Virus record (IMG/VR): IMGVR_UViG_3300045988_065177
Coordinates: 20,466 to 84,465 of that record
Length of the DNA stretch: 64,000 nt
From: a virus
Reading direction: 5' to 3' (one strand)
The position numbers were made by a program, and so were the translations under genes. Position 1 is the first letter of the stretch, and each line of letters opens with the position of its first letter. Shown here in pieces: positions 428-27,162 of this stretch. Under the pieces are notes generated by a model. The model ran no database searches. It was not told where the DNA came from and saw only the letters and a list, made by a program, of their open reading frames with translations.

Positions 428-1600
428 TTAAGATACTCTATTCAGAGTCCTGAACCCGACAAGGGAAGTGGCATTGCCGACGTCAGTGCCAGAATAGAAA
501 TAGCCGAGACCCGCAGTGCCGCCATAATGCGCGCGGCCGCCCACCAGCAGCGTGCGAAGCGCTGTGCTGCTTGCGTTGCAGTAATGGTAATCGCAAATAT
601 AAGTAGTAGCACTTCCTCCAACAGCGGATGGAATTATTTCAGCGGTTTCACCTAAGTCAAATGCCTTAATATAACCATCAGATGCTACTTCGTATCCTGC
701 AACGGTTTTCTCTCCAACTACGTCGGTAAATTCCGATACGTTAGTAGTTGTATAGACAGTGCTAATCTCATTAGCAGCTGCTCTCACTATAACTACTCCG
801 TCCAGGTTAGTCCAAATGTCTCCAAACGGATTATCGAACCCTCTCCAGCGAGGTACTTTAAATGTATGAGTTGCTACTGTATTTGTGCCATCTTGAGCTG
901 TACATTCTGGAATAACTAAATCTTTTACTCCAGTGAAGTTACCAAATTCATTGCAGTAACCACAAGGCGTAAGTGGATATGTTGCATTATATCCTGACCA
1001 ACTTGTAGCTGCGTTAGCCCAATCTGTAACTCCAGGTCCCAAACCCCCTTGATGATATCCATCCGCAGTTAACTCTGCATTATATGCAGCCTAAGAATTA
1101 AAATTAGCATATTCAATGACATAATTCCAGTAGAATATCCATTTGTAATATTCATAGCATAGCAATTCTGAACCAGCATTTGTTGCATATGTTCTCATAG
1201 TAGCTCTAGAAATATTAGTTCTAGGCTTTCCTAAATCACTTCTGAATATATCCTTAGTTTCTAATTCTGTAGTTAGATAATCATCGTAGTTAGCTCTATT
1301 TCCTCCACCTCTAAATGCAGTAGTAGTATTAACTACTGATACAGCTTTTGGAGTTGCGGAGACTGTGGTATCAACTGTACTTCTGTATGCATCTATTAAT
1401 AGTTCAGGAATTTCTACCCATGAATCATCAATTTTGACAGTAGAAGTTCTAACCCATCTTTTGTTTCCATCGCTGCCAGATTTTCCATAAAATTTAGGAG
1501 TATTAACTCTTACTGTTCCATCAGTTCCATCGAGCACAGAAGGAGTACTTCCATCTTCTTTGTAAGCCCAATCGTCCGGATATAAATAGTAATTTACCAC
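428..1600 (-). CDS. Tail-fibre-like DGR target protein, C-terminal part. ORFs 1091..1600 and 428..1042 are joined by a single in-frame TAG at 1091-1093. The gene continues upstream through more TAGs.
   Basis: The two listed ORFs are in the same frame, separated only by TAG and 16 sense codons. The C-terminus ...LVGGRAHYGGTAGLGYFYSGTDVGNATSLVGFR matches the GGxxxxGxxAGxxxx...GFR pattern of the CLec-fold/FGE-like variable regions of DGR targets. A GC-rich island (478-570) corresponds to VR1. The stop codon is TAA at 428-430. Confidence 0.5.
452..549 (-). repeat. DGR variable repeat VR1, at the 3' end of the tail-fibre gene
   Basis: Aligns base-for-base with the TR (251-348). The differences are confined to positions where the TR has A on the gene strand. 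It ends about 20 nt before the stop codon, as is typical for DGR VRs. Confidence 0.7.
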
Positions 1601-4600
1601 ACCGTTATTTGCTACACATCCTCTGTAAGCGGACTAAATAGGGAGGGATTTATGTAATAGTGGATTTCCTATTCTAGTAAGGATAGGAGAAGATACGGTA
1701 ATATCCCATTCTACTCCATAAGAGTATAAGTCTACGTTACTGCTTAACTCTGTGACTTGTTTGCTTAGACTCTATTGTTCTTTTTGTAATTCTTCCCAAG
1801 CAGTATTAAGAGCATTAAATTGTTCCTCTAACTTAGTACTAGTATCTGCCCACTATGCAGTCCCATCTTCAGAAAAGGTTAAAATCTATCCAAGTGTTCC
1901 TCCAGCAGGTATGTGTTTATTTCCAGAAGTAGTTGGGTGTACATAATTATTTGCATTATCTGCAATACCACTAAGTTTCTGTTTTTCAGTTTCTGTGTAA
2001 TTAGCTTCAGAAAGTCCTTTTCCTAATTCTTTATCTACCTTACTTTCCAACTCCGTTTTAGTAGCTAAACCACTTATATCCTAGTGTTCCTTTAAATAAT
2101 TTTCATCATTCTATAACTAAGACACTTTAGTTGGAATGGCACTAGATTTTGCATATGTCTAATCTATAACATTTCCAGAGCCATCATAGGTAGCCTTTAA
2201 GTCATATACGGTTTCTCCAACCTTTATAGATTTGATAGCTGCCATATTATTGTATTATTAAAGTTTCTTCTTCTACATTATGATCTATTCCTTCTATGGA
2301 GGCAGTTAAGTCTTCAACAGCTTTCTACAGTTCAGCCTTGGTAGCGTAGTTCTTTAATGTATCTGGGTCTATTCCAGATCCTCCTATATTTCCTCCAACA
2401 ACTTTTACTGGTTTTGCTGAGTTCTTAAACTACCCTTCAACCCAAATTGTTCCCATACTATTTAAAATATTAATTGTTCATTTTCTCCATCTACCTGTAC
2501 GTTACCAGAACCAGGCTATATTGCATCTATTTTCTTCTACAATTCGTCTACAGCAGCCTTTATTAATTCTTCCACCTCAGCTTTTGTATAGTAGCGTTCT
2601 GTCAGATATTCACTTCTGACATATCCTGTATCCTATATATCTTTTTCTCCATAAGTACAATAGTACGTATCGTTCTCTGTCTTATTATTTTCAACTAAGT
2701 CATCATAATCTGTTTGTGGAAGACATACCAATTTAGGAACCTCTTCTGTAAGAGCAACTTGCTTTCCAGATGCTAATAATCTATTGTCTTCTGTAGTAAG
2801 TTTAACAGAACTTTCAATAGTCTGTTCAGTTGTTTCATCTTCTGAACTTTCTCCAGTTGTTCCCTATTGTACTTCTTTTTCGACAATTTTCTAAATAGTA
2901 ATATCAGAAGTTTCTATAGAGGTTGATTTTAGAAGCTCTGTGCTAAATTCCTTAGAAGCGGCATCCTAATCTTCCTAATATTTCTTCTAGGTAACAAATA
3001 TAAAATCGTCATCACCAGTCTCGGGAGAATCTCCTCTTAAACTTTCTTTTGTCACATACTCCTCTGCTATCTAATCGGAAAGGTCGGTTAATGACTATTG
3101 AGTGGCGTATGTAGATTGAGCATTTTCTTTTGTAAGAAACTTTTCATCTACCTACGAGCTAGTGTAGTATGCTTTAATATCTTCTGTAGTAACGTAGCTT
3201 CCTAGTTTCTATAAACCAGAAACAATTTCATCAATCTATGTCTTTGAGTAATAATTAGTAGCAACCCAGGACTGATATTGATTGGTAGTATGATAATTCT
3301 AATCCAAATATTCCTTAGTAATATAAACCTTTGCATCATTTGTGACGTCATATACATAGTAATATGTATCAGGCTCTACCGTCCCTTCCTCTACTAACTT
3401 TAGATACTCTTCTTCAGTTAATGTTACTAAGTTCGGAATATCCGATTCAGTAGCAATCTAATCTTCACCTATAAATAATCCTTCAGACCTAACGTCTACT
3501 ACTAGCTAGCTCTCTCCCTCTACTACAGGAGATTTTATCTATCCAACAGTGATGCTTTCTAAGGAACCATCTCCATCTACCTTAAGAGTTTTATCTAACT
3601 CGTCTTGGATGGCCTACTAATCTTCCTCATATTCTTTCTTTGTAACGAAGACAAAATCATCTCCTTCCATTCCCTCTCCTCTAAGACTTTCTTTAGTAAC
3701 GAAAATATTGTCTGTTTCTTCCTTAGTATAATACTTAGTCAGGGATAGAGCTAAAGAATCATTAGAGACATAATTAGTAGTTAATTCTTCCAGTGTAGCA
3801 TAATCTGATAGGCTGGCAATAGTGTTATCTAAGTCTGTTCTAATCTATACTACAGTAGTATTAAGGGCCTTCTGTTTTAATTGCTCTTCTATCTTTTTTC
3901 CCCATTCCGCAGATAGGTAAAACTAGTCATCGTCTAAGCTATCCTCATATATATAATAATATGTTTCTGCATGAAGATATGTTTTATCTTCGTCTATAGG
4001 TTTAAAATCTTCTGTGGTATTTTTAGACCATTCCTTATATTCAGCCTCTGTACAGGTGATTATCTAAATAGATTCATAAGAAGCTTTCCAACCTTCTTTG
4101 TATTTAATCTTAGACTTATCTACTAGCATATAAATATTTCCGTTATCTATATTTGAAACGGTCATGCCTTGATAAGCATATTTCTCCGGAATAGAATATA
4201 ATTCGGCTAAATTATCGACTACTGTTCTATTATCAAGAGGTTTAGGAGTTTCTACGGTTAAAGCAACACCTAATGTAGCATCACCTGTATATTTAAATGC
4301 CATTATTGTGATAAAGTAAAGTTAATTTGATGAGGCAATGCTGAAGAATAAGTATCCTTCTTAGTCCATACTTTATAAGGAAATCCATTTATCTATTCGG
4401 TAGAAGTTTCCCAGCCACTTAAATCAACATTTAGGTATCCTAGTCCTCCATCTACTGTAAATGAATTTAGCTAAGTATTACTTCCAGGTAATTTTATAAT
4501 AGCTTTTCCACTTAATGAAAATGTAATAATTCCAGAAGATTGTCCAAATGGAACAAGACTCTATTTGATTAAACTATCTGTATTACCAGAATACCAAGGG

Positions 4601-5892
4601 TAGGTAGCAGTCACCTATGCTGTAGTTGATATTGAACCAGCTTCCACCCTCTTGTCTGTAACCTCTCCCTTGTTGTTAATAAGATATTCTCCAGCAGCAT
4701 AATTTACGGTACCAGAATGCACATAAACACCGATAGAATCATATGTTTCAGATTCTACAGGAGAATCATTATAGGTAATAGTTTCTTCTCTACCAGTTTC
4801 CTCTCCAGCATCATTTTTTATAAATGTTAAAGTAGGGGTAAGTAAAGCGGATCCTACCTCCACAATCTAAGAGGTGAAGCTATAATACAACTAAGGATAA
4901 ACCAAATCTCTAACAACAGTAGGAAATAATAGAGTATCTATAATCTCATTAAACGGCTTTCCTTTCAATTTTTCGACTGTAGTTCCTTGAATAACAGTAG
5001 AAGTAGTATCATCTGGAAGTTCAGTTTGATAAGTGGCTATAGTTTCTAAACTTGTCTATATATTTGTGATATTCTCAGTATTAGAATCTACTTTAGAATC
5101 AGTGTTCTTCTAAGCTTCCTATACTCCCTTAACTTCTTCCTTTACCTCTGTTAGAGATGGTTCCAGATCTTTTACATATATTCCGGGTAGGACTACTGTG
5201 GAAGGTTCTCCTTCCTCCTCTACTGGGGGGATTTCCTACTGAATCAGATGTATTGCATTATCCTCCTACTAGGATAGAATTACTTCTAGAGTATTATCAT
5301 CCTTTATTTCTATGGTTTTGGAGTTTCTCAGACTATTAGTTATCCAATTCTAGATGTTTTTGTCAACATCTATATTTTTGATAGACTCGTTAATATCCTC
5401 TATTGCCTCATTAATCTAGGTTATTTTCTCAGAAAGATTGTTTATGCCAGTTCTGTTAGATTCAATTTCTTCTTCGAGTTCTTCCTTAAGTACAGTAATA
5501 GAAGTTCTGATATTACTTATATCAACTTTTATTTCCTCTATTTCTTCTGTATTAGCTTCGTACTAACTTATAAAGAATAAAGCATAATCTAAGGCATCTT
5601 TTACAGTATTGATATTCTCTGCAACATCACTGGTATAAGTCCATTTCTATTCTATGTACTATACTAAATCTTTCTAGGCTTCTATAGTTCCTTCTATATT
5701 TCCCCAAAGAAGACTCTACTCATCAGCGATACCTAGATTCTTTCTAACCTTAGCTCTTTCTAATTCAGTTCTATATTCTCCAAGATAGTTGTTTCTTAGG
5801 AGAGGTATAGGTTCACTTTTTATTAAATGTCCTTTCTTTCCACAAGGCTTTATATCAGCATTGCTTACCGAAGTGTAAATAGGCTGTATCAT
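1601..5892 (-). CDS. Upstream continuation of the tail-fibre locus: one or more very large TAG-rich structural ORFs. Candidate ATG at 5890-5892, preceded by an AT-rich intergenic stretch.
   Basis: Only short standard-code ORFs are found here (4064..4303, 4615..4863). Hand translation of the minus strand stays open when TAG is read as sense, for example a TAG shortly upstream of 1600 then continues in frame. Plus-strand CTA triplets recur in frame. Confidence 0.25.
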
Positions 5893-6011
5893 TATGATTC
5901 AATAATTGCTATTTAATAAATTCGTGATTATCTAATTTTACGGGTAGGTTAATAAAACAAATTAGATTCAAAATATCCTAATAATCTGGTCTATATCCCT
6001 TTCTAACCCTT

Positions 6012-6776
6012 TTAAGGAAATCCTCATACCTTTTAATAGCCTTTCTTTTAAGAGCATCCACAACCTATATGTTTATGTTCATGGTGATTGTTGCAGAATC
6101 CACCGCAAGTACGGAACATTGCTAACAATCTTTCAGCTTCCATGAATTGTTTAAAGCCTATTAAATAATCTATAATATTAAGTGTCATCCAGATAAAATC
6201 TCTTGCAAATATATCTGCATCATGTTCTCTAGTTAAACACTTATTTAATGAAGAGTCAAAGAGTTTTTTACAGTAGTTAATATAGCACTATTGCAGATTT
6301 CCTGTAAAGAACACATCTACTTTACATTTTTTGATAGTAGTTCCTTCTATATTTCTTTCAAGGATTTCTTTTACAGTACATTCCTCTAGCTCTCCATCTA
6401 TCTCTTTATATAGTTTCTCCCCGTCAGTTATATAGATAGTTTCATAATACTCCTTGTATTCATCAGATGAATTTTCATACCATTTCATATTAGGAAGAAT
6501 TATGTGGTCTACTACATAATATCCATCTTCTTTCACCTTAAATGTACAAGAGTCTAAATCCTCTGTATGGTCATTGAGAAGTACGTCTATCAAAGTAGCA
6601 TCTCCTATACTAACTTTTATGATAGTATTTAGGGTAGCACTTTCACTATACTTATAAGAATCATAGGAAGTTACTACCTCTAAATCTTCATCAATATACT
6701 ATCCATATTCCTTTGAAAAGTCTTCAATAGTTATTTCCCCGTTAATCTGGGTATGTATATCAATACTAAATTCCAT
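6012..6776 (-). CDS. Hypothetical protein, TAG-recoded; includes listed ORF 6288..6593
   Basis: ATG at 6774-6776. The 6288 ORF terminates at TAG (6288-6290) and the same frame stays open down to TAA at 6012-6014. Confidence 0.3.
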
Positions 6777-9700
6777 ATTATAATAATTAAGACTCAGCAG
6801 TAGACCATTGACCATATTGAGCAGGAGTAGAAAATGGTTTCCACTTACCTTCTTGTCGTATACGTCTAGACATAAAAACTGAACTAAATGATAAACTAAT
6901 ATCTTGAGGATAGTCTGTCCATGTATATGACTAACCTTCAGGAGTCGGTGGTAGACTATTTAACTTACCAGCTAGTTCCCCATTCCAATAATAATTATAG
7001 TCATATGCTTTAGTTGGAGTAACAGTTGTTGTTTCATGTCCTTCCGAATCTACATATAAAGGATTTCCTTTCTCATCTGTTTTCTACTTATACTCAATAA
7101 CTGGAGTTATTCCCTCAGTTCTAGTGTATATATTCTAGATAATAGTAGAAACATCACTTGCTACAATCTCATAAATAGTAGTTCCCTGAGATTCATCAGC
7201 TCCCTAGAAAGTAAATTTAGTTCTTTTCCATATGTATGGATTCTCTTCAGTTGGAAGTTCGAAAGTATCAGTCCACTATTTATCAGATAATTTTATCTCA
7301 GATTCTTCAGCAGTATCAGCAGGTAAGTAATGAATCTTAATAATAATATTATTTACCGCTTCACTAGAACCAGAAAGGTCTGACACCTATTTAAATAGTT
7401 TCTTCAAATCCTCTTCCACATTTGATTTGGAACCAGAAGCATTACTAATAATCACTGAACCGTCTGAAATAGGATAAATCTATTGCTAATCCTTATTATA
7501 TACAATTGTTCCAGTTGCCATATTAATGTATTTGTCTTATTTTGTCATTATATGGATTTCCATCATGAAGCTAAGACAACTCTATTTCAGTTCTCTTTTC
7601 TTCTATATCCATTTGTCTATCTTTATATGTAGAATCAGATTGAGCTTTGAGCCAGTTAACCTTATATTCTAACTACATTTTCTGCTGTTCTAATCCTAAT
7701 CTCTACTCATCCAAACTTTCTATCTTCTACTAAGCTTTCTGTAGTTCTTGCTATAACTGCTATGCCTATTGTGAAGTTTCTTCCAGTTTTTCCTATAGCT
7801 ACTATAGCTAATTGTTTTCTTCTTTACGAATCTATACTGCTTTCTTAACCTTATATTTAAGGTCTGTAAGACTCTTAGCAGTTAGTGCTTCAAATATGAT
7901 GTCAGGATCCATTTGCTGACTTTTGACAAACTCTGGAATAATAGCTTTAATAGTTTGTAAATCCTCCATTACCTCAGAGCTAGAAGTTATATGGATGTCA
8001 TAATCAGTAACTGTGAAATATTCTGGAAGTGCTGTAAATATCTGCTAGTATTTATCCCCAAGTATAATAGTACCAGTTAATCCTTTCTTATATGTTATTT
8101 TAGCCTAGTTTAGACTATCCAATAATATCTCACAAGTGATTAGGTCCATCTACTAGAAATAATGCTTAGTTACTATGTAAGAGTTAGTAACACCTTGCTT
8201 AATATTAGTTACAGCATCGTGAGTTTCTATTCCATTTAATCTTTCTCTAAATACTCCAGTTATAGATGATGTAGTTTGTTCTACTGATTGAATTGCTAAT
8301 TCAATAGCCTATACAGCCTAAGCTTTTAAGGTATCATCAAATCCATTGTATATCTAGTTAGGTGCTTGCGCTCCGTCATTTCTCCCTTCCTAAGTAGAAT
8401 CAATCCACATGATACCACCCTTCTTGTATGCTAACCATTTCTACACTCTTTCTGGCCATTTTACGCCTAGGTTAGTAGGAAGCAATGACATATCCATGAT
8501 TACTCCAGCAGTACCGCTGTTAGCTATCAGGTTATCCCTATAATAATTTAACAAGTCATATCTATCCTGTAGATGTGCACACTTTAATATCAGAGAGTAC
8601 GGTTGTTGAGAACGATTTAAGAAATATACCCCATTTACAGACAAAGAGCAGAAATTAGGATTATCTTTTGACCTCATAACAGTCTTGTCTAGACCTCTCA
8701 GAATATATATTTCTTCTCCAATTCTAATGGTGTTGTATCTCTACATTACAAAATCGTCATCAGTTTCTATCCACTCTACATCATAAACAGGGATTAACTA
8801 AAATCTATGAGCACTATATTCATTATCTGGGTATCCAGGAATAGTTTCATGATTCTAGTCTTCATTTACTATAGTACAAGTGTCACCATAAACTCTTCTA
8901 TAAACTGCAGCTGAATCATCAGCTCTCCATTCATCTTTTAGTCTTTTCAAATCTTCTCTAGAGATTTCTTTTCCGTATTTAGCTAATATCTGGCTTTTAC
9001 TCATCCATTTTCTAACTACTACTCTGTACGAATTTCTAACATATGGAGATTCTGGATTCCTATCTACGAAAGTATTTAAAGGATTCAGAACTTCTATTTC
9101 TATGTTAGTTCCAGAGGATGATGATTTTACTCTGAAAAATGTATAGCCAGTAATTAATAAATCTGTAAGTAACTATCGGAGTTTAGTTATTAAGTCGGTT
9201 TCTCTAGACTGCATAATATAATGAATAATATTCTATGCAGCTATCTCATATTGAGAAATAAAAGACTAATCAATGTCTTGAATAATTTTATCTAACTAAG
9301 TCTTCACGGCTTTATCTGTAATATCTTTTCCGTCGATAAATTTCAGAATAGAATTACTTAAATGGTCTCTAAGAAATTTAACTATCCCTTTAGTTATTTC
9401 TAACTATTTTTCTCTGGTGATATTACTAATGGTATCTGAATCCTTACAAGAAATCTTCGGAAGGATAGGGGTTCCTAGATATTCCCCTACTAGAGCATCT
9501 ACGTGCTTTTTTAGTAATGGTGTAAATTCTACAGAAGTAGGACTACCTATTCCGAAGTTTTCTTCCAGGTAACGAAACTATTCTGGGTCTCTCTTTCCGT
9601 TATAGTAATTATAGGCTTTCTATAATTCGTACTTATCATATACAAGCTCCGCAATAGCCTCGTTCGTCTTGTCTATCAGTTCTTTTTCTTTCATAACATA

Positions 9701-9891
9701 AATTATGCTGTTCTGGAGGAAGTTTAGTTGCATTATAGTATTTAACTCTTTGTAACTTCCTACTTCTTAATTCTTCCTTTATAAATGGGAGAAATTCTTC
9801 ATCAGGTAAATCAGCTATAATGACTAAAGGCATCTCTGACCTATCAAAGTTAAACGATACCTTATAACCAACTGGATCTAGGTTCTGAATT

Positions 9892-11322
9892 TCAAGTCCA
9901 CCTATGTATTCCATTTTGTACAAGTCTCTCATATAACCTAGGATCACTTGTTTCAATTCTGTATGGGTCATCGTATTCATTTTTTTGTATGTTAGTTTCA
10001 AAAGTCTTAGAAGTTGGTATAACCCCAAATCTTTTGATTCCCCTCTCGTCGTAATAATAACCATAATCTTGGAATTGTTCAACTTCTTTTTCAACAAGCA
10101 CTGGCTATCTTCCTGACAATTCCTAGTCTGCCAATTCTGTCATTCCTACAGCGGCTACAATATCGAATTTACCTTTATTCTCATCATTATATCCAGTAAA
10201 TTGGTCTAACATTTCTTCAAACCATATAGTATGACAGAAATCCTCAATAAAGGCTGCAGTCAAATCAGTATGTTGTTCTATAATAGTTTTGGTAGCAGGT
10301 GTTCCATACTATTTAGTAGTTCCATTCTTAACGTCTGTTAGAGTAGCTCTAGGTCTTTTCATAAAGTAGTTTAAACAACCCTTTTCTCTAGCCCAGGTAA
10401 TCATACCTACACGGGTAGCTTCTATGTTTATTCTACAATTATAGTATCTAACTAAACACATAGCTATTTTATAGGCTTCTCTAATGTCATTAGGTCTGTC
10501 TTTATACATAGCAACATACTACGGTTCGTTTAGACCAAATGCTCTTCTTTTTATAGTTATACAGAAATCAGAAGGATCTCTTGTTTCTTTTGAAGTTTGA
10601 CTAGCTCCTATATCAATACCGTCTATTCCTGCAACATATAAATCATGCATTTCTTTGTACGCTGGAGATTCAAATTCTTCTCCCCTTTCCTCAGCTTCCT
10701 ATCTAAGTTTATCCATCTACTCTTTATACAAATCAGACCATACAGGATGTTCAAGTATTTTTACTTTTCCGTTAATATTAGGAATCCATTTAAAACCATC
10801 TATATTATCCTAGGTGTGTTTATTATTTTTATAGAAGTAGTCTATGTATCCAGATTCTGGTCTTGGTCCTATTTTCTTAAGTCTTATATTAGCTAACTGG
10901 TCCGCAATAAGAATCTTGTTGAACTTGTTAACACCTTCAAGATTAAATGCTTCTTCTGCATTCCAACATCGTTCGGCACACTTCTTTAGATAGTCGTCTG
11001 GAACTGCTAATAAATTGTCACGCTCTTCCTATAGATACTTTTTATATTCTACTGTATTACATACACCTCTATGGTCCATGTATTCTGAATTTAGAGACTA
11101 GACAAAATATGGAATGAAGAACCCACTTTCAATAGTAGTTCCGTCCTGTGTATAATTGTGTCTAAATGGAAGAACCTTGTAAGCTTTTGGATTGTAATAT
11201 ATCTTCTTAAGACCTGCTAATGGAGCACCCATATCTCCCGATGTGTTATCGTACAGCTTTTTATCCGTACTTCTATAGCTTCTTATTCGCTATAGTCCAG
11301 CATACCTTTTCACCCACTTATT
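9892..11322 (-). CDS. terL: Terminase large subunit, C-terminal nuclease-domain segment (TAG-recoded)
   Basis: Hand translation in the frame of ORF 9892..10101 gives ...YVAGIDGIDIGASQTSK...DFCITI...YVAMYKDRPNDIREAYKIAMCLVRYYNCRINIEATRVGMITWAREKG..., a typical RNaseH-like terminase nuclease signature. The frame is open from an in-frame TGA at 11323-11325 down to TGA at 9892, with several in-frame TAG. It includes listed ORFs 10309..10509 and 9892..10101. Confidence 0.4.
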
Positions 11323-11377
11323 TCAGTTGGGGTGTCGAACACTCTTGGGCATATTATATTTATTCAATGCCTATGCG

Positions 11378-12289
11378 TTACGATAACCCAAAGCCTTTCG
11401 CAATCTCTGAGTTTATCTCGGGATTAACATCACAGTCTTCCCCGATATTGCTCGATAATCTTCTAGAAGATTCCTCTTCTAGACGGCAGAACTCTAAAAA
11501 CTTTTCGTATTTTCTATCTAAATATATGGTAGCATTTTCATATAAATATCTAGCTAATCTTCTAGACGGTATATCGGAAAATTTTAATTCAAATGCTTGA
11601 TTAGTATAATTTTCAGTACTTTTATTTCTGATATATCCTTTATTAGAAAATAAACAATTTATTGAAGTTAAGAAAGATTTAGTACCTACTATCGTAAGTC
11701 TTGTTCTTAATTTATCACCATCTTTAGATATTGTTAAACATCCATCCCCGTCAACATAACCTCTAATAAAATGTAATATATTTACTGTATTTTTAAATAA
11801 TTTCAAATTAGGAAATGCCAGAGTTAATGACTTCTGTGGGACACATCCCAATCTATTTAATGTATTCCATAAATGCTTGTTGCGAACAGATAAGTGACAG
11901 AATTTAATTCCGTTAGTTTCTCCGATTCTAATTTCTGTTGTTAATTGAAGGAATTTTCTAAATTTCTCTAAATGATCCTTATCTTTTAAAGATAATCTTA
12001 TTTCTACTCTATTACCCTCTTTAGAAATATTTCCATCTGCATACATGAATCCTAACCAGTAGAACTATTCTTCTGTATTCATAATGTCAAAACAATTCTC
12101 ATTCAATCTACATTTATTTTGTTGGTTAATTATTTCATAACCCCATTTTTTAAATCTTTCCGATAAAGTTTGACGTTTAATATTATATTTGCTACCAAGT
12201 TTTGTCAAACTTCTTGCTTCTTCTGGAGTATTCAAATACTCTTCTAAAGCTTTTTTACAAATTTCATCAATTTCTCCACTTGTTCTCAT
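11378..12289 (-). CDS. LAGLIDADG homing endonuclease with N-terminal HTH domain; in-frame TAG at 12065-12067 joins ORFs 12065..12289 and 11378..12046
   Basis: Motifs W-LGF-MYADGNIS (motif 1, immediately after the TAG) and FIRGYVDGDGCLTI (motif 2). The N-terminal 74 aa look like a helix-turn-helix. The two listed ORFs are in the same frame, separated by TAG and 6 codons. AT-rich promoter-like DNA lies upstream at 12290-12394. Confidence 0.65.
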
Positions 12290-12394
12290 AATATAAAAAT
12301 TTACTAGTTATTATTCAACTATAATTAAAAATTTTATATATTATAAGTACTGGAGGAGTAATATTAAATTAGTGTAATTAATACGAAATTTTTA

Positions 12395-13423
12395 TTAAAG
12401 TTTTATTCTACCAGTACCTCCAAATAACATTGTTCCACGAGGTTTACCCTGAACTTCACAAAGCTCTTGTCCCTGCACTACAGCAGTATCTAGTCCAGGC
12501 CAGGACCCTGCTTCATCATATATTAATAAGTCAACACGGTCTCCACGAATATTAGATGCCTTAGCTCCATTTATTCCAACTACTTCTGATTTAAATCCAA
12601 CATCCTCAAACTGTCCGTTTACCTTAATCTGTTTACCGGACTTCTTTCTTAAGTCTTGGTCAATCAAGCGTAGTTTGAAGAATCCTCCTCCTGTACAAGT
12701 ATTCAAGAATGTTAAAGCATTATCAAACTTACTAAAAGTACCTTTAAGGAAGGTATCATTAAAACAGGTAATCATTACTCTGCTTCTTCTGATTACTGAA
12801 TACATTCTTGCAGATAAGGACGCATTTATTTCGGAGAATCCAATAGAACGAGCTTTCATAAGAGCTGCGTGTTTATGCAGAACTCTAGCCATCTACAGAT
12901 AATGAAAGAACATATAATGAGATGCGAAAAATATAGGAAAGTCACTACTTGTTCCTTCTCCGGATGCTTTGTTATCATCAATAATAGGAAGCTAGTAGAA
13001 GTTTAGGAAGAAATAGTTATCTCCAGTAATTGTATAACCATTAACAGTCATTCCATATTTACATCTTCTATACTATTCCTTCCAAAACTCATTATATCTC
13101 TTACTATCTTTTAGATATGGACAATACTTTCCAGTTTTTCTATACACTTCTCTGGTCTCAGTAAACCAATCTGGGTCGAAGTCAAGACCATGTGTTTCAT
13201 CTATTGGTCTATATCCAGTTATTTCATAAGATAAAGTAGGGTCAAATACCTCTATCTTATCTCCTCTTTTTACATCCCAATAATCAGCATTTTTGCCTCT
13301 TTCCTCTCTTATCTTCTATACTAGTTCTCTAGCTTCTTTGGCATCCTCTTTTTGTTCTTTCTCTCTTACCTAATCTACTATATTCTAGATTTCTTCAGGT
13401 AATATTTTTTTCTTTCTAGGCAT
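12395..13423 (-). CDS. terL: Terminase large subunit, N-terminal ATPase segment (TAG-recoded), ending at TAA 12395-12397
   Basis: Listed ORF 12395..12892 (..DLLIYDEAGSWPG.., Walker-B-like) continues upstream through TAG at 12893-12895 and further in-frame TAGs to an ATG near 13421-13423. The hand-translated upstream part is ...YRRCKYGMTVNGYTITGDNYFFLNFYQLPIIDDNKASGEG... Confidence 0.4.
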
Positions 13424-14805
13424 AATTAAAAGTCTCCTGGGTCAAAGCCGTCTGTAGCTCCACCTCTTACAGTAGATTGTTCTGTAAGCTCTTTCTTAAC
13501 CTGCTCTTCTAGTGTTACTAATTCTTCATGAACTTTATGAAGAGTAGCCATTTCTTTCATTACCTTTTCAGCTTGAAAGACGGGTTTGCCATTATTATCA
13601 CGTTCATTTAAATCTACTATAGTATCAAAATAATCAATAAACTAGTCAGCTGCTCTTTTAGCTGCTTCTAGAAGTTTTATTGATTTGTTAGAATCCTACA
13701 ATGCTCGGTATTTTCTACAGGCTTCCCTGAATAACGGGTCATTAAATTCGGATTCAGATAGTCCAGAGTCACTAATAGCTTCATCATGTCTTTCATGTTC
13801 TGAATATTGGCTATAGGGACTCTTCCAATCAATAGCTAGATAAATGTAAGATAATTCTCTAGTTACTCGTTCCTTGTCAACAGATTTATCTCTCTGTATC
13901 AAAGCCTTAAACTCTTTAACTAGAAGAAGCTCTGGTTCATTTATCTCTAACTATTTAGTTAAAGTGTTATAATTAAATACATTCATACTCATCAATCATT
14001 AACATTAACATCTTTAATCTTTTTATTTCATTTTAGAACCGCATTTACTTACTTTCATTTTAGAACCACAAGCATCCTTCTTAGCATACTTTGTTCTATC
14101 TGGAACCCATTTTCCATTTTTGAAATTTCCCTTGTGTCCCCTATTTGCCATGACCTCCTAGTCATTATATTTATTAATGGACACAGAATCCCTAGATGCT
14201 TCATCCTTTGCAGATTTCATATCCTTTTTATACTAAGCTCTTCCAGCTTTGAACTTGTCAACTTCATTAGCTTTCTTAGTAACCTTAGTTCCTTTCTATG
14301 CTTTTTGGCAAGCTTTGCAGATTCTTCCTCCCTGTTTAAAATAAACAAGTTCCTCTCCTTCTGGGCATACTCCTTTTAATTTTTTATAGTATTCTAGTTT
14401 AGCTCCAAGTCTAGCCATAACTCCGCCTTGCATCTTCTACATAAATTCTTGATACTTGGCTTTAATTCCATCTTCTCCAAGCTATTCAGCGTAAGCCTAT
14501 AAATCTTGCTCTGATTGTAATTGTATTCCTTGTGCTTGGGCATCTTGTATCAAGTATGCCATGAATGCCTTCTGTAATTCTTCCTAATTAGCCATTACTC
14601 TTCTACTTTAATTAAATCCTTTGTATTAAATACTGCTTCCTGCATTAATCCAGAATCAGTAAACCATCTACATCTTAGTCCTCGTAATCCTTGGTTATCT
14701 TTAAATAAAGCTGCTTCTCTTCTTAGAACAAGCATAACTGGAGAGTGCATTACTTTACACTACCGTAAAGTAACACAATCCCCAGGCTTAAAATAAACTT
14801 TTTCA

Positions 14806-15423
14806 TCAATTGTTTCCATGCTTCAATTCGTCTCTTCTTTCAGTTAGTTTCTCATTAACTACAGCCATGATTCTATTCTCATTAACTACTACAAATCCTA
14901 GTTTATAGAATGGAACCATACATTCACTAGCTATTGTATAAAATACAATATCTCCAGGCTTCAAGAACTCACACTTGTGTCCTACTTCTATCACAGTTCC
15001 TACTTTAATAAATTGTTGTTCTTCTTCAATTTCTCCAGTCTCATTAGATTTATAAGTAGGAGTAAATCCACCTAAATCAGTAATAAGACCGCTTTTAGTA
15101 GTTTTTATTTTTTGGAATGGGTTTTGTTCAAAAGGTTTAATTAATGCATACCCATACATCGGCATAATTTCAAGTCCATTCATATTGTTAGATAATGACT
15201 TAGCGTAATCCTCTAGTGCCTGATTATGTTTAGAGAATTTATCTTCTAACTCATCTACTGCGGTATTAAACTTCTCTTGTTTTTCTCTTAATAATGTTCG
15301 GTCTGCAGCCTCTCCATTTAAAATAAAATGTTCTCCCGTACCTTCCATTCCAGTTAATGATAGTGCTAGTTTTTCGTTACTGTTTAATTCTGTTCTTAAA
15401 GTTTCCATAATCCATTTTACCAT
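14806..15423 (-). CDS. Hypothetical protein; C-terminal region with possible GroES-like fold
   Basis: Intact standard-code ORF. C-terminal ...GLITDLGG...IKVGTVIEVGHK..LKPGDIVFY.. is weakly reminiscent of a co-chaperonin beta-barrel. Confidence 0.3.
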   Translation of the reverse strand: MVKWIMETLRTELNSNEKLALSLTGMEGTGEHFILNGEAADRTLLREKQEKFNTAVDELEDKFSKHNQALEDYAKSLSNNMNGLEIMPMYGYALIKPFEQNPFQKIKTTKSGLITDLGGFTPTYKSNETGEIEEEQQFIKVGTVIEVGHKCEFLKPGDIVFYTIASECMVPFYKLGFVVVNENRIMAVVNEKLTERRDELKHGNN

Positions 15424-17671: not shown

Positions 17672-18322
17672 ATGCCTTTTAAATCAACTTTAGTAAACTG
17701 CAAATAGTGTGGAAGAGAATTACCCCTCAATAGAACTTATTTTCGTAGAATAGTTACTAACAAAAAGGAACATTATTCAGAAATATGCAAAGAATGTGAA
17801 AAGGAAAATAAGGTAAACTAGGAATGGAAAGATGGCAAACTTAGATGCCATATATGTGGATAGTATAAAGATGAAAATTGCTTTCCTATTAGTGGTCATT
17901 ATATATACAGAAATTATAGAGATAGCAGATGTACAAAATGTAAAGGAATACAAAATAAGAAAGCTAAAGATAGATACTCTGATGAGAAAAGATTACAATA
18001 CGTATTAAATAGTAGACTATTAGCTGCCAAGAATAGAGCTTCCTCAAAAGGTATTGAATTTCAACTCTCCCTTTAGGATTTAACTAAATTATGGGATAAG
18101 CAAGGTGGAAAATGTGCAATTTCAGGAATACCTATGACATATGAATTGAATTAGGGAAGGGTGTTTTCTAATGTGAGTATAGATTAGGTTGTTCCAGGAA
18201 AAGGCTATATTCCTGAAAATATCTAGCTTGTCTGCATGGCTGTTAATTAGATTAAATCTGATTTCGATATGTAGACAGTTTTGTATATATGTAAACAAAT
18301 TATTAATAATTATGATACATAA
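17672..18322 (+). CDS. His-Me finger (HNH_3-like) endonuclease with N-terminal zinc ribbon; about 9 in-frame TAG codons
   Basis: Hand translation from ATG 17672 gives ...CKECEKENKVN(TAG)EWKDGKLRCHICG(TAG)YK...LWDKQGGKCAISGIPMTYELN(TAG)GRVFSNVSID(TAG)VVPGKGYIPENI(TAG)LVCMAVN(TAG)IKSDFDM(TAG).. and ends at TAA near 18320. The pattern G.CAISG...S.D..P..GY...N..LVC...N..K is HNH-like. Confidence 0.45.
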
Positions 18323-19614: not shown

Positions 19615-19929
19615 TCAATCAAGTTTAACATAATCCATCCAGTCTTTTATATATGATTTACATTCTTCCAAATCTGGATAGATACTTGCTATAGTGCAAC
19701 CTGTTTTTGGATTCTTAAAATGATGGAGTTTTGCTTCCTCATTTTTCTCCTCTTCTATATTTCTATTTAATGTTCTATTCCAGTAGTTGTATTTCTCATC
19801 TAGCATTTCCTTATCACACTCCTCCAATATTTTCATATTGGGATTACCCATTATTTTGTCATACTTTCTTTTTAAATTAGAAACTTTGACAACATCATTA
19901 CCATTCAATACGACTGCACACTGTTTCAT
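19615..19929 (-). CDS. Hypothetical protein
   Basis: Intact ORF, 104 aa, no TAG. Confidence 0.4.
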   Translation of the reverse strand: MKQCAVVLNGNDVVKVSNLKRKYDKIMGNPNMKILEECDKEMLDEKYNYWNRTLNRNIEEEKNEEAKLHHFKNPKTGCTIASIYPDLEECKSYIKDWMDYVKLD

Positions 19930-20153
19930 TTCACTACTTTATAAGTACATATCTTACCTATCTGCTTTCCTTGAATACTTACTTGTGGAAGAAAGTAGCA
20001 GGCTTGATTCTCAAATTCTTGAGGTACAAATATGTAATCAAATCTACATCCAACTACCTTATCGCAAACTTTATTCCAATCATCTCCCTCTTCAATAATA
20101 AGGGTCTTAGCTCCTGTTGGAGTTACAGCATAATTCTCATTTAAATTTATCAT
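19926..20153 (-). CDS. Hypothetical small protein (start trimmed to ATG at 20151-20153)
   Basis: The listed ORF 19926..20228 has an N-terminus that is just translation of the suppressor tRNA gene. The first ATG downstream of the tRNA gives MINLNENYAVTPTGAKTLIIEEGDDW... Confidence 0.35.
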   Translation of the reverse strand: MINLNENYAVTPTGAKTLIIEEGDDWNKVCDKVVGCRFDYIFVPQEFENQACYFLPQVSIQGKQIGKICTYKVVK

Positions 20154-20170
20154 AACTATTAATTTTGGCG

Positions 20171-20242
20171 TTGCCCTACTAGGATTCGAACCTAGACTAA
20201 ATGATTTAGAGTCATCTGTGCTGACCATTACACCATAGGGCA
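20171..20242 (-). tRNA. Amber suppressor tRNA, anticodon CUA (reads UAG), derived from tRNA-Gln
   Basis: Minus-strand sequence TGCCCTA-TG-GTGT-AATGGTCA-GCAC-A-GATGA-CTCTAAA-TCATT-TAGT-CTAGG-TTCGAAT-CCTAG-TAGGGCA-A folds as a canonical cloverleaf with anticodon loop CTCTAAA (34-36 = CUA). Its D-arm, T-arm and 4-nt variable loop are nearly identical to tRNA-Gln(UUG) at 33541-33612. Confidence 0.75.
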
Positions 20243-20389
20243 GTATTTATTTCTCTTTTAGAGATTTATTCTCTGCTGCCAATTTCTCTAGTTCTTTCCT
20301 TAGCTGTTCGTTTTCGTGAAATAAAGCCTGCATAGTTGCATTTACATTAGCAAGAAGTATTCTTATTTGAGCTATTTGTTCATACATAT

Positions 20390-20796
20390 GCTTTCAGTTG
20401 TTCTATTTTCATAGTTACTACATTAGATAATGCCATTCTGAATTTAGTAATTCCAGCTCTTACTGATTCCAATTTTCCACTTTCCAAACATTCTTGAATT
20501 TTATTCAGTTCGGACTCCCCTAGATATTCGCAGACATCTATAAATAAATCATCATCTAAAGATTCTAAGTATTTCTGGAATTTGCCTACTTCTTCATTAG
20601 CTAGACAGCTTTCCTCTTTCTATCTTTCATAAGATATTAATAAGAATAAAGAATCATCTGTAGATTCCGCTTTAATGGTTAGGCCATTACTTGATAGATA
20701 ATACTACTAGTTCTTATTAATTGCATCGACGAGATTCTTAAACTCGTCCTAATTTAGTAATGTTTCTAAGTCTGTAATCATAATTGTTTCTTTTTT
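20390..20796 (-). CDS. Hypothetical protein, TAG-recoded (about 4 in-frame TAG); boundaries approximate
   Basis: ATG at 20794-20796. Hand translation gives MITDLETLLN(TAG)DEFKNLVDAINKN(TAG)(TAG)YY... and stays open when TAG is read as sense. Confidence 0.25.
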
Positions 20797-21096
20797 AGTT
20801 ATATACAACAATACCTTCTGAAAAGTTAAATACAAAGTTAAAAAATTCTAATTCTAATATTATACATATTTCATTTAGTTATCAGTAAATGGGTACAGGT
20901 ACTTTATATAAATAGCCCCTGGGGGTTTAATAAATTCGGAATTTATACAGGTGAAAGTTACCTAGATTCCGAAAATTATATGAGAGACTGTTATGGCGGT
21001 CCACAACCCCCTTAGTCCCCCCCTGTATATTGATATAAAACTAAAACAAAAACAAAAGTAACTCACAGTATTAACAAATTAAAAATTTTTAGTATT

Positions 21097-22620: not shown

Positions 22621-22690
22621 TCCCCATTAGTATAATGCATTGCGCCTTCCTCTAAAGAAGGAGATTCTGGTTCAAACCCGGAGTGGGGAA
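22621..22690 (+). tRNA. tRNA-like element with possible CUA anticodon loop; irregular D-arm (possible second suppressor or pseudo-tRNA)
   Basis: TCCCCAT..GCG-CCTTC-CTCTAAA-GAAGG-AGAT-TCTGG-TTCAAAC-CCGGA-GTGGGGA-A. It has a good acceptor, anticodon and T arms. The anticodon loop is identical to that of the suppressor tRNA, but the D region is 2 nt short and does not pair conventionally. Confidence 0.3.
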
Positions 22691-25058
22691 CTTAGTATTT
22701 GAGGACTACAGCTACTTGTAGGCTCTATTTGCTGTTAAGGACTATAATGGGTACGCCCAGAGACTAATGCAGAGCATCTCTTATACCAAACAGTATGCTC
22801 CTTGATACTGGAGAGATGTCTTATCGAGAGATAAGGCAAAGTATTGTGAGATTATACACTATATAATCGAAAATAGCCATTTGGCTATAGGCACAGGAAA
22901 GTTCTGAGACAATTGTGAGGCACAGCGGTGCCTCTACTCCTAAGATAAGAACAACCTTTACGTGGTTTAGGAGATAAGTAAGCTATTCAAGCTGAAACTA
23001 ATAGTTCTAGTAATAATTAATAAAAATGTTTATCATGGAAATTATCAAGATTAAAGAACAGTCTATCAATGCAGAAGAATCTAAGCTCTATAAGAAAATG
23101 TTAGATTCTCTAGGAGTAATCTACGAGACAGAGAAAATTAAGAAGGAGCAAATAGATGTTCCTATCTACGTTCTATTTGAAGAGCTAGATGTTAGGGCAA
23201 ATAATGCTTTAAGGTCTGTTACTAATGACGTAACCATAACTCTAAGTACTTTCGTTAAACAGTATTCAAAGAGAGATATACTAAGAGTTAGAAATGTAGG
23301 AAAGCATACATTGACTCTAGTAGTAGAAGCTTTTAGAAAATTTGGATACGAATTAAACTGAGAATTGGAAGTCCTTCGCCCTTTGCTGGCTTAGAAGTAA
23401 AACAGCACTTTTAATAATTTAATAGATAGTAATTTATGATTGTAGATACGATGACAGGTAAAGATATTGTCAGGGAATTTAACCGCGATATAGACTCAAT
23501 AGATAAAATTGCAGAAAGAATGGCCGTAAAGAAAAGGCGAATACTGTTGAAAATGAAAAATCAAATGACTTTTCCACACTTTGGAGAAATAACTCAGATG
23601 AAAGTTGGAAATAACAGATATTATTTAGTATGGAAATGTCTAAGTAGAAATAGTTTAAATTATACGGTATTTACTAAATGTGGCAAAAGAATATATGCTT
23701 ATTCTACTGATACTACAGTACTGGAGTTTACACGTCATTTTTTAGATAGGTATAACGAGAGGTTTAAAATTGTAGGACTAGATAATATACTAAGGAATAT
23801 CTGCAAAGATTTTTGCTTAGGAAAAATATTTGATTCTACAGTTGTCACAGATACAGGACTATTTATAATGACTGAAACAGACTACGGATTCAGTGCAGTT
23901 ACATGCATGAACGATTTATCGAGGAAAAACAATTTAGAAAGATTAGAAAAAATAAGAAAAGGTCTTTCTATATTAGACCCTAAAAGTAAAGATGAAGAAA
24001 TAATGCAATTGTATAAATTGGGTTTATATGAAGATCCTCTGATGAGTCTTTGAAAATTAAGACGAAACTACCTAGAAATAGGTAGTCAGGATTAAAAGAA
24101 AAAGAAAATGAGAAAATTCAACAGATTACACTGCGATTCAACTGTTCGCGCAAGATTTACAGATTCATGGGGAAGAGTGATAACTCTCACTGGAACCCAC
24201 GCCTTCGAGTATACCATTCACATAGAAGGCATCAGAACAGTTACAGAAACATTTGTGAATGGAAAATTAGCAAGAAAAGATTTAACGAATTAAAAAGAAA
24301 ACCATGAGAAAAAGATTCAAAGCTGCGAGAATAGCATCTTCAGACAACTACGAATTGTCTAGAAGAATACATTCTCAGTATTTAAAGAGATGGCACAATG
24401 CTAACATCGAGGTAATCACTGAAATTACCACATCATTAGTAATCAAAGAACAAAAATACATAAGAGTATTTGGAGAATTAATTCCGATTTCGGAAGAGGA
24501 ATTGAGAATCCATAACACTCTGATAGTTGAGAACTAATATGGAAGATTTATTAGCAATTGTTAGATGGGGCATTACTTTACCCGTTTGGTTATTAGAACA
24601 TATACTGAAAGGTTTAACTTTCATTGTTCTAGTATTTGGACTTGTCGTTATGGCGATTTTATTCCCGCTATTTCGATCTACTTGGCGTCGTACAGGCGAT
24701 TCTCGTGTATTTAAGTATGCAACAAAGTGGAGAGGAAACTATCCACTAACAAAAAAAGTATTTAGTTTATGGCAATAATGAGAAGAATCACCGAAATAAA
24801 CGGTGAGATAATTATGGTGGAAACTATGATTATTGTAGGCAATATAATCCTTTGTACAATTCATATTAATGGAGAGCTAGTTAAGTATGAAATATTATCT
24901 GTTGGACAGTTATGGGAAGATCGTTAGGTCTTTCCGTAGCTGGTCAGAAGCTAACAAATTCAGAATAGTGATGAATAGATTGGATTGGAGGATTGTACCA
25001 TGACCTATATAGTAGTATTCATAATATTAATTATCATTTGGAAGGCAATTGAAGAACA

Positions 25059-26070: not shown

Positions 26071-26143
26071 GGGGCAGTAGCTTAATGGATAAAGCATCAG
26101 ACTTCTAATCTGACGAGTGCGAGTTCGACTCTCGCCTGCCTCA
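26071..26143 (+). tRNA. tRNA-Arg(UCU)
   Basis: GGGGCAG..TCAGA-CTTCTAA-TCTGA..CGAGT-TCGACTC-TCGCC-TGCCTC-A; anticodon loop CTTCTAA. Confidence 0.7.
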
Positions 26144-26293
26144 CTTAAATATTTAATTTTAATCTTTATGAAATAGTGCTTAAATTGTGGGAAGGAGATT
26201 CCCAACAGAAATAAATATTGCAACAACGTCTGCTAGTTAGAATATCAACATAAACAAAAATATAAGCTAATTTTAGAGGGAGACGAGTCTATC

Positions 26294-26554
26294 ATGAGAG
26301 CCAACTACTCTCCTTCAATATTTAGAGAAGATATTCTTAACGAACAAGATGGTATATGTGCAATATGTGGTTGTAAACCAGAACATAATGGAAAGCCATT
26401 AGTGTTTATAGTTGACCACATAGACGGAAAAGCTTCAAACAATAGAAGAGATAATTTAAGATGCATTTGCCCTAACTGCGATTCTCAGTTGGATACTTAT
26501 AAATCTAAAAATAAAAATAGTGATAGAGTATATTATAGAGAGAATCATAGGTAA
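26294..26554 (+). CDS. HNH endonuclease (small)
   Basis: CAICGC...HNGK..VDHIDGKASNN..DNL..ICPNCDSQ, an HNH beta-beta-alpha-metal motif with flanking Cys pairs. Located between tRNA-Arg and tRNA-Lys. Confidence 0.55.
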   Translation: MRANYSPSIFREDILNEQDGICAICGCKPEHNGKPLVFIVDHIDGKASNNRRDNLRCICPNCDSQLDTYKSKNKNSDRVYYRENHR

Positions 26555-26655
26555 GGTCAATTCCATACAAACAGGTTATTAGCTCGAGAAATAACCTTCT
26601 GTAAACAGTCAGACGTTGGGAGCTTATAGCCCTACGATAGTGAGGCTAAATTAAT

Positions 26656-26729
26656 GACTCCGTAGCTCAGTTGGTTAGAGCACCAAACTTTTAATTTGGG
26701 GGTCCTGGGTTCGAATCCCAGCGGAGTCA
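26656..26729 (+). tRNA. tRNA-Lys(UUU)
   Basis: GACTCCG-TA-GCTC-AGTTGGTTA-GAGC-A-CCAAA-CTTTTAA-TTTGG-GGGTC-CTGGG-TTCGAAT-CCCAG-CGGAGTC-A. Confidence 0.75.
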
Positions 26730-26797
26730 CAGGCAATTTTCTTGAATTTTTCTTTTTCTTACGCAGTGAGTATTTGTTGTGAAACACATACTTACAC

Positions 26798-26870
26798 CTG
26801 GATATAGTTCAGTAGGTAGAACGCTGCATTTGGGATGCAGAGGTCGTGTGTTCGAGCCACACTATCCAGA
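26798..26870 (+). tRNA. tRNA-Pro(UGG)
   Basis: CTGGATA-TA-GTTC-AGTAGGTA-GAAC-G-CTGCA-TTTGGGA-TGCAG-AGGTC-GTGTG-TTCGAGC-CACAC-TATCCAG-A. Confidence 0.75.
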
Positions 26871-27079
26871 CGAAGTAATCACCATTCACTAGTAGAATAG
26901 ATGATGTCTATTGGGTGCCTACGTAGATGAATCCCTGATTACTCCAATTAACAGAGGTGAGTTCCCTTAAAATTGTTACCACGCACTAGTGCGGCTATTA
27001 GCTACTAGAGGACTTGGGGTGCCAAGAGGAAGAATTGTAGTAGCTATGTTAATTAGAACAAATCTGTTAATTGCTTTAT

Positions 27080-27162
27080 GGGAGTGCGCCAACGTTGGAG
27101 AGTTGGGCTTGACTGTAAATCAAGTGCCTATGGCTTAGAAGGTTCGAATCCTTCCACTCCCA
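27080..27162 (+). tRNA. tRNA-Tyr(GUA), type II with long variable arm
   Basis: GGGAGTG-CG-CCAA-(10-nt loop)-TTGG-G-CTTGA-CTGTAAA-TCAAG-(15-nt variable arm)-GAAGG-TTCGAAT-CCTTC-CACTCCC-A. Confidence 0.65.

Follow-up and report, generated by a model that had tools for sequence, protein, structure and literature searches.

A CUA tRNA gene lies in a mosaic of small genes beside a TAG-rich late block

The window analysed here (the whole stretch of DNA, 64 kb of a genome of ~188 kb) begins with a minus-strand block of 14 late structural and packaging genes (428..14819), which encode tail proteins, the portal and a split terminase large subunit (TerL) and are the putative clients of a suppressor tRNA. 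All 14 contain in-frame TAG (14/14 genes), at 26.6 codons per 1000 across the block and up to 32 per gene, the number carried by the portal gene (7523-9694/9733, minus strand). Reading TAG as sense raised stop-free coverage of the 1-16 kb region from 10-51% to 93-100%, and TAG must be a sense codon in all 14 of these late minus-strand genes. TerL is interrupted by an endonuclease open reading frame (ORF); Rfam revealed no group I intron at this split and no further matches outside 16-41 kb of the window. The block is followed by a mosaic of 15 small genes on both strands (14.8-23 kb), 7 of which contain TAG (14.2 in-frame TAG per 1000 codons), and then by a block of 64 genes (23-64 kb), 59 of them on the plus strand, whose products include helicases, a DnaB-like protein, RNase H, NAMPT and similar proteins. 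In-frame TAG falls to 2.9 per 1000 codons in this last block, and TAG terminates only 1 of its 60 long standard-code ORFs. Genes of this genome stop mainly at TAA, and its GC content is 35%. A megablast search of GenBank phages with positions 15-25 kb of the window returned no match.

Within the mosaic we identified Sup1 (20170..20242, minus strand), a glutamine-type amber suppressor tRNA by ARAGORN, Rfam, folding and covariation. The initial annotation had placed this gene exactly at the junction between the TAG-rich late block and a TAG-free early block. That placement is approximately right, but the contiguous TAG-rich block ends at ~14.8 kb, 5.4 kb from Sup1, and Sup1 sits inside the mosaic. 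Here it is packed into a run of small genes on its own strand. A 46-codon ORF (20247..20387, minus strand) ends in a TAA stop 4 nt before the Sup1 5' end, and the start of this ORF is overlapped by the TGA stop of a further upstream ORF (20380..20835, minus strand) that contains four in-frame TAG codons. On the other side, a TAG-free 75-codon ORF (19926..20153, minus strand) starts 16 nt past Sup1 position 73. Sup1 has no private upstream intergenic region. A sigma-70 promoter scan around Sup1 and a second CUA tRNA, Sup2, found 18 sites against 18.7 expected, and thus no enrichment, a result that is uninformative for a Bacteroidota-type host. The run's genes immediately upstream of Sup1 themselves contain TAG, which fits awkwardly with a simple order in which the suppressor is made first and TAG-containing genes follow.

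ARAGORN called Sup1 as a 73-nt tRNA with anticodon CUA, reaching the discriminator A and one further base. The Rfam tRNA model RF00005 matched 20171-20242 (minus strand) at 69.5 bits (gathering score, 29), which ranks fourth among the window's tRNAs (25 in total by ARAGORN), and the cloverleaf was the minimum-energy fold. The minus-strand cloverleaf that had been described from the letters alone was thus confirmed, with its CUA anticodon and its arms. These comprise an acceptor stem of UGCCCUA/UAGGGCA, a D-arm of GUGU-AAUGGUCA-GCAC, a variable loop of UAGU (4 nt) and a T-arm of CUAGG-UUCGAAU-CCUAG. Two bases (UG) link the acceptor and D stems, the D-loop is 8 nt long and contains GG, the T-loop is canonical, and CCA is not encoded. 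An amber suppressor is defined by a 5'-CUA-3' anticodon at positions 34-36 of a 7-nt loop in which position 33 is U and position 37 a purine; the Sup1 anticodon loop, CUCUAAA, has 7 nt and reads U33, C34-U35-A36, A37.

TAG is strongly supported as a glutamine codon in this clade

The TAG codons of the portal gene allowed the amino acid at TAG to be assessed from related DNA. Close portal homologs in the protein database were rejected for this purpose as non-independent (they were called with a TAG-reading code and already show Q at TAG), and the DNA of TAG-free homologs was used. Among 17 distinct TAG-free homologs (53-62% identity), Q made up 61% of the residues at portal TAG columns (background, 6.7%) and was the majority residue in 21 of the 32 columns. 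Ordinary codons in the same alignment predict their own amino acid 57-67% of the time; Q at TAG columns is therefore at the level of an ordinary codon. Of the 32 TAG positions, 21 are CAA or CAG in one of two GenBank portal homologs that lack in-frame TAG, and 16 in the other.

Polymorphism among close relatives pointed to the same residue. Across 26 close recoded portal genes, 45 columns contain TAG, and the partners of TAG at polymorphic columns were only CAG (20 columns) and CAA (15 columns); in these 45 columns TAG never swapped with Tyr, Lys, Glu, Leu, Ser or Trp codons or with TAA. TAG/CAG and TAG/CAA swaps likewise occurred in the small ORF adjoining Sup1, where relatives of the 46-codon ORF have TAG at sites with CAA or CAG in the window. 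Because three independent codon tests agree, TAG appears to be a synonymous glutamine codon in this clade, a reading that these comparisons strongly support. It would then be the majority glutamine codon of the 14 late genes (124 TAG against 106 CAA plus CAG). The initial proposal of an amber suppressor through which TAG is read as Gln is upheld by the portal homologs and the TAG/CAG/CAA swaps. The codon evidence also agrees with proteomics, which validated TAG-to-Q decoding in crAss-like phages (PMC9523058), and the polymorphism-based, sequence-level proof that TAG is synonymous with CAG and CAA in this clade is an addition of this analysis.

Sup1 is nearly invariant among related genomes while Sup2 drifts

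Among 80 related loci, Sup1 was kept at the same place and on the same strand in 28 genomes, as three variants 1 nt apart, and all 27 close recoded genomes contain it. In 20 TAG-free relatives, no suppressor-type tRNA was found within 10 kb of the portal gene. Comparison of 17 flank haplotypes revealed variation at 2 of 73 columns in Sup1 vs 74 of 219 (34%) in the upstream flank and 18 of 120 (15%) in the downstream flank. The same 28 genomes carry two clearly different alleles of tRNA-Gln(UUG). We take these patterns as evidence of a far tighter constraint on Sup1 than on the ordinary tRNA-Gln of the phage.

Sup2 (22621..22691, plus strand; called by ARAGORN) is ~2.4 kb from Sup1, on the strand of the early tRNA array, and went unmentioned in the initial annotation. 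It belongs to an unrelated sequence family (48% identity to Sup1), shows covariation at 5 of 20 pairs and had no blastn match in GenBank phages. In relatives, the tRNA at the Sup2 slot has the anticodon CUA (16 cases), UUA (8) or CUG (1); three more have aberrant loops and two lack the tRNA. Relatives without CUA at this slot remain fully TAG-recoded. We considered TAA recoding in the UUA-bearing relatives and rejected it: they retain 28-36 in-frame TAG codons, have none of TAA, and TAA still terminates their portal gene. A full-length RAGATH-14 RNA (RF03145; 22398..22591, plus strand; 183 bits) precedes Sup2, with 30 nt from its end to the tRNA, and this linkage is kept in 28 of 30 related loci. 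We found no literature on RAGATH-14; the papers naming RAGATH concern RAGATH-18 and TnpB only.

With two CUA tRNAs in the window, Sup1 might be conserved but translationally minor or inactive, with TAG decoded mainly by Sup2 or by a host factor. The position of Sup2 on the early, tRNA-array strand and its structural covariation would suit such a division, and published surveys include recoded phages in which no suppressor was detectable (PMC7886860; 10.1101/2021.08.26.457843). However, Sup2 scores only 43.9 bits in Rfam vs 69.5 for Sup1, many fully TAG-recoded relatives no longer have CUA at the Sup2 slot, and it is the near-invariant Sup1 that every close recoded genome keeps. We therefore consider a minor role for Sup1 very improbable. 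That Sup1 is frozen while Sup2 drifts speaks for Sup1 as the principal suppressor.

Sup1 is placed in an old lineage of CUA tRNAs

The window also encodes a tRNA-Gln(UUG), here called allele B (33541..33613, plus strand; ARAGORN, Rfam), within an array of 23 tRNAs (26071-39967, plus strand). This gene is the nearest paralog of Sup1 in the window, as first reported: at 78% identity, the two form the top pair of 300 window tRNA pairs (mean 56%, sd 5.4%, z = 4.1). The two genes had also been described as nearly identical, which is true of the D-arm and the T-arm (one base apart in each) but not of the acceptor stem, where pairs 3:70 and 4:69 are flipped from G:C in tRNA-Gln(UUG) to C:G in Sup1. 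Differences in the anticodon arm fall at 27, 28:42 and 29:41 of the stem and at 32 and 38 of the loop. Overall, 17 of 73 positions differ, several of them as compensated changes that affect four stem pairs.

The best matches to Sup1 in GenBank phages were in the Suoliviridae, namely cr7_1 (NC_055895), cr124_1 (NC_055899), cr60_1 (NC_055891) and cr53_1 (NC_055889), at 81-85% identity; these genes are annotated 'tRNA-Gln', but their anticodon is in fact CUA. In a neighbour-joining tree with the anticodon masked (~70 columns), bootstrap support was 95% for a CUA clade of Sup1 and the Suoliviridae CUA tRNAs, 96% for a clade of phage Gln(UUG) genes and 86% for the two together, and 0.3% for a grouping of Sup1 with the tRNA-Gln of its own genome. 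Compensatory covariation was found at 6 of 21 pairs in the CUA clade, and the 1:72 pair is weak or mismatched in every member. We assign Sup1 to an old, strongly conserved CUA lineage that it shares with the Suoliviridae and that is sister to Bacteroidales-type tRNA-Gln.

Cellular relatives were sought with the 5' half of Sup1 in 185,579 species genomes, which yielded 75 loci with anticodons that included CUG (23), UUG (20) and CUA (10). The CUA cases lay on phage-like contigs binned into MAGs, one of them a 186-kb contig with the major Sup1 variant; besides these phage copies, the matches were to tRNA-Gln with CUG or UUG only. Among the CUG cases were a 2.3-Mb contig of Gabonibacter massiliensis and contigs binned to Odoribacteraceae, Butyricimonas and Paludibacteraceae. 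They have the acceptor stem of Sup1, A73 and the CUGGG/CCUAG T-stem, although seeding with the 5' half pre-selects the acceptor stem, so that the match of cellular tRNA-Gln(CUG) in this stem is in part a product of the search. When the comparison was restricted to positions 19-65 and the anticodon masked, which gives an unbiased identity, Sup1 was 73-75% identical to its own Gln(UUG) and 70-80% identical to the cellular CUG genes; for phage Gln(UUG) allele B against cellular Odoribacteraceae/Butyricimonas genes the value was 86-91%. Together, these values indicate that the nearest relatives of the phage Gln(UUG) are cellular and that the CUA lineage is a separate, older branch.

These results bear directly on the origin put forward in the initial annotation, that Sup1 was recently duplicated from the phage's own tRNA-Gln(UUG) and its anticodon then mutated. 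Such a duplication would explain the standing of the two genes as the most similar pair in the window, their one-base distances in the D-arm and T-arm, and the CUAGG T-stem that the window's Sup1 has in common with Gln allele B. However, it would also have to accommodate the 17 differences with their four compensated stem pairs, and it requires two anticodon substitutions (UUG to CUA). Sup1 is nearly unchanged in 28 genomes despite two Gln(UUG) alleles, the Suoliviridae CUA tRNAs are closer to it than its own Gln is, and allele B, which groups with Sup1 in 0.3% of bootstrap replicates, resembles cellular tRNA-Gln far more than Sup1. By these sequence comparisons, a recent duplication is already refuted, and we consider it highly unlikely.

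For the older CUA lineage, a tRNA-Gln(CUG) ancestor is the most economical origin because one anticodon change (G36A) suffices to give CUA. It is plausible that Sup1 derived in this way from a Bacteroidales-type tRNA-Gln(CUG) with a UGCCCUA acceptor stem. As a demonstrable direct ancestor, cellular tRNA-Gln(CUG) was downgraded, given that the acceptor stem was pre-selected and that the unbiased positions do not discriminate. After G36A, the anticodon arm would have been remodelled, with C32, A38 and new stem pairs. We infer that the changes at 32, at 38 and in the anticodon stem fit a tuning of the suppressor's anticodon arm, an idea based on classical work on suppressor efficiency.

Sup1 is predicted to accept glutamine

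Sup1 falls in the glutamine class of tRNAs by sequence, in that its nearest relatives are tRNA-Gln genes. In E. coli, the identity set of glutaminyl-tRNA synthetase (GlnRS) consists of a weak U1:A72, G2:C71, G3:C70, G10, U35, A37, U38 and G73. A comparison with these elements, which the initial annotation had suggested, gave a mixed outcome: Sup1 has U1:A72, G2:C71, G10, U35 and A37, but it deviates at three places, with C3:G70 for G3:C70, A38 for U38 and A73 for G73. C3:G70 and A73 are also present in the cellular Bacteroidales tRNA-Gln genes found here, so the E. coli rules may not transfer to Sup1. No release factor, aminoacyl-tRNA synthetase (GlnRS included), amidotransferase or pyrrolysine (Pyl) genes were found among the 30 window proteins scanned, within the 64 kb of the genome that the window covers.

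Insertion of a residue other than Gln (pyrrolysine, Glu, Tyr, Lys or Trp) is very hard to reconcile with these data: ARAGORN prints 'tRNA-Pyl' for Sup1, but this is its default name for any CUA anticodon, and mischarging is conceivable from the departures from E. coli GlnRS identity (A36, C3:G70 and A73), but the codon evidence points to Gln only, the entire Sup1 body is tRNA-Gln-like, and genes for Pyl synthesis or charging were not seen among the proteins scanned. In a tRNA-Pyl, one base separates the acceptor stem from the D stem, the D-loop is small and lacks G18G19, the variable loop has 3 nt, and genes for a Pyl synthetase and Pyl biosynthesis accompany it; Sup1 has two linker bases, GG in a normal D-loop of 8 nt, a 4-nt variable loop and a standard T-loop.

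Discussion

The source of this DNA fits a Zeta-group gut crAss-like phage of ~185-190 kb, an assignment made by features. PHROGs 6547 and 6681 were matched by its portal and TerL, and tblastn linked the portal distantly to crAss-like portals; the contigs of portal relatives measure 175-193 kb, and the 25 tRNAs, the 35% GC and the split TerL agree. According to Yutin et al. 2021 (PMC7886860), Zeta-group genomes are 145-192 kb long, encode a crAss-like portal and terminase together with many tRNAs, and show split genes and recoding of late genes.

Much of what we observed has precedent. Phage suppressor tRNAs and TAG-to-Gln recoding of late genes are described for crAss-like phages, those of the Zeta group among them, as is an origin of suppressors in tRNA-Gln or in bacterial tRNAs (PMC7886860). 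TAG-to-Gln suppressor tRNAs and genetic code 15 were reported by Yutin et al. 2021 (PMC7886860), Borges et al. 2021/2022 (10.1101/2021.08.26.457843) and Peters et al. 2022 (PMC9523058). The present system resembles the published one in its phage-encoded CUA tRNA with a Bacteroidota-type body, in the concentration of TAG in late structural genes with TAG-poor early and replication genes, and in its low GC (35%) and mainly TAA stops; like the Zeta group, its relatives have genomes of 175-193 kb, many tRNAs and split genes. Sup1 is an ordinary member of the already published Zeta-group TAG-to-Gln suppressor system. Nothing essential differs; what is added here is a tRNA family common to Zeta-type phages and Suoliviridae, and a second suppressor-type tRNA, Sup2, that is unrelated to Sup1 in sequence.

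Within this common family, the Suoliviridae CUA tRNAs resemble Sup1 in the UGCCCUA 5' strand of the acceptor stem, the D-arm, the UAGU variable loop, a weak or mismatched 1:72 pair and a T-stem of CUGGG/CCUAG or related sequence. They differ from it in their anticodon-stem sequences (by compensated changes), in that some encode CCA and in U72 or G72 in some, and they sit elsewhere, adjoining a dUTPase or terminase gene. Cellular Bacteroidales tRNA-Gln genes are 78-85% identical to Sup1 overall and match it in the acceptor stem (UGCCCUA/..GGGCA), A73, the D-stem (GUGU/GCAC) and the T-arm (CUGGG-UUCGAAU-CCUAG). Unlike Sup1, they have the anticodon CUG or UUG, a 7-nt D-loop (8 nt in Sup1), U32 and U38 (C32 and A38 in Sup1) and a different anticodon stem. 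A familiar bacterial parallel is E. coli supE (glnV/glnX), a tRNA-Gln in which a change at anticodon position 36 turned CUG into CUA and which the host enzyme still charges with Gln. supE arose by a point mutation on the chromosome and is a weak suppressor in a cell that keeps TAG as a stop; in contrast, Sup1 is a phage gene dedicated to suppression and conserved for long, and the genes it serves have TAG as their majority Gln codon.

Together, these data suggest that Sup1 is very probably a functional, Gln-accepting amber suppressor, tRNA-Gln(CUA), of a Zeta-type crAss-like phage and a member of an old CUA lineage. Since gaps of only 4 nt and 16 nt separate Sup1 from the neighbouring ORFs and CCA is not encoded, Sup1 would be transcribed within the minus-strand run of small genes, excised by host tRNA-processing enzymes and given its CCA by the host. 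Charging would fall to the glutamine system of the host, because the scanned window proteins included no synthetase and Sup1 agrees with Bacteroidales tRNA-Gln in its acceptor stem, A73 and weak 1:72 pair. Sup1 is then expected to decode UAG as Gln, as seen at the codon level, which would make the 14 late structural and packaging genes translatable. Early and replication genes avoid TAG and would be translatable before the suppressor accumulates, in line with the published model of late-gene and lysis timing (10.1101/2021.08.26.457843).

These findings have consequences for how related phages are read. Such genomes need annotation with genetic code 15, as half of their late proteins are otherwise lost. 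Our comparisons also indicate that one suppressor lineage is common to two distant groups of Crassvirales, which is an addition of this analysis. A more speculative possibility, which we regard as doubtful, is a code switch with two suppressors, in which Sup1 would be the invariant workhorse in the late-strand run and Sup2, ~30 nt behind the structured, 190-nt RAGATH-14, would have an anticodon that toggles between CUA, UUA and CUG from one near-identical genome to another. RAGATH-14 could act in cis on processing or regulation, or form a mobile cassette, and in this way set the timing or amount of Sup2. The module of RAGATH-14 and Sup2 is the only element here that could lead to something new: if such a switch exists, it would give the orphan family RAGATH-14 its first functional context, and an ochre-type (UUA) tRNA would be tolerated in genomes that still stop at TAA.

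TAG use extends beyond the structural module

TAG use is not strictly limited to the late block, the structural and packaging module in which in-frame TAG is read as glutamine. This is shown by two small cysteine-rich ORFs outside that block, both on the plus strand, which carry nine (17672-18322) and two (26168-26554) in-frame TAG codons and which, judged by eye, look like homing-endonuclease-type genes. The only long early-block ORF to meet a TAG (54805-55626, plus strand) does so one codon ahead of its TAA, and this tandem TAG-TAA would curb readthrough damage after suppressor expression. The TAG-free plus-strand block also encodes a glucosaminidase-domain protein (PF01832; 42100-42588, plus strand), a possible lysin. 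If this protein is the endolysin, its place in that block runs contrary to the prediction of the published late-gene model that lysis genes are recoded. Within the late block, the terminase large subunit (9892-13423, minus strand) comes in two pieces, N-terminal (12395-13423) and C-terminal (9892-11232), separated by an endonuclease ORF (11378-12289, minus strand; PHROG 4645) that carries two LAGLIDADG-like motifs. At its gathering threshold, Rfam detected no group I intron at the split.

The second suppressor tRNA has a variable anticodon

Sup2, the second CUA tRNA (22621-22691, plus strand), belongs to a sequence family unrelated to that of Sup1, the glutamine-type amber suppressor. Across related genomes, the tRNA in the equivalent slot has a CUA, UUA (ochre-type) or CUG (Gln) anticodon, or a defective anticodon loop. 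Despite this variation, we found that the cloverleaf is kept through covariation. The UUA anticodon occurs in eight relatives (L014, L015, L022, L023, L024, L051, L056 and L057), and in UUA-bearing relatives the portal gene (L095, L091, L145, L102, L113, L151 and L108) contains zero in-frame TAA codons and still stops at TAA. It seems that these genomes tolerate an ochre-type tRNA with no reassignment of TAA. Sup2 begins 30 nt downstream of a full-length RAGATH-14 RNA (RF03145; 22398-22591, plus strand; 183 bits), and the order RAGATH-14 then tRNA is kept in 28 of 30 related loci. Our search of the searchable literature found no described function for the RAGATH-14 family.

The early strand carries a tRNA array

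The plus (early) strand carries an array of 23 tRNAs (26071-39967), in which Tyr, Cys, Met and Gly genes are duplicated. Its odd members are a "Ser(ACU)" (38443-38524, plus strand) and an 80-nt Met(CAU) (38740-38819, plus strand). Two distinct alleles of tRNA-Gln(UUG) occur among otherwise close genomes. Within the array lies a 140-aa protein (34512-34934, plus strand) whose match to the cyclic phosphodiesterase domain of tRNA ligase (PF08302, E = 6.7e-8) suggests a possible role in tRNA repair.

Suppressor-bearing contigs are found in bacterial MAGs

CUA suppressor tRNAs of the Sup1 lineage also occur on contigs that were assigned to MAGs of bacteria, under the names Bacteroides sp. and Segatella copri: DXLM01000001.1 (L209; 186,052 bp) and the ~101-kb Segatella copri contigs L204/L222. 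The contigs probably represent phage genomes that were wrongly placed in the bins of their hosts, and their MAG labels may offer a clue to host range.
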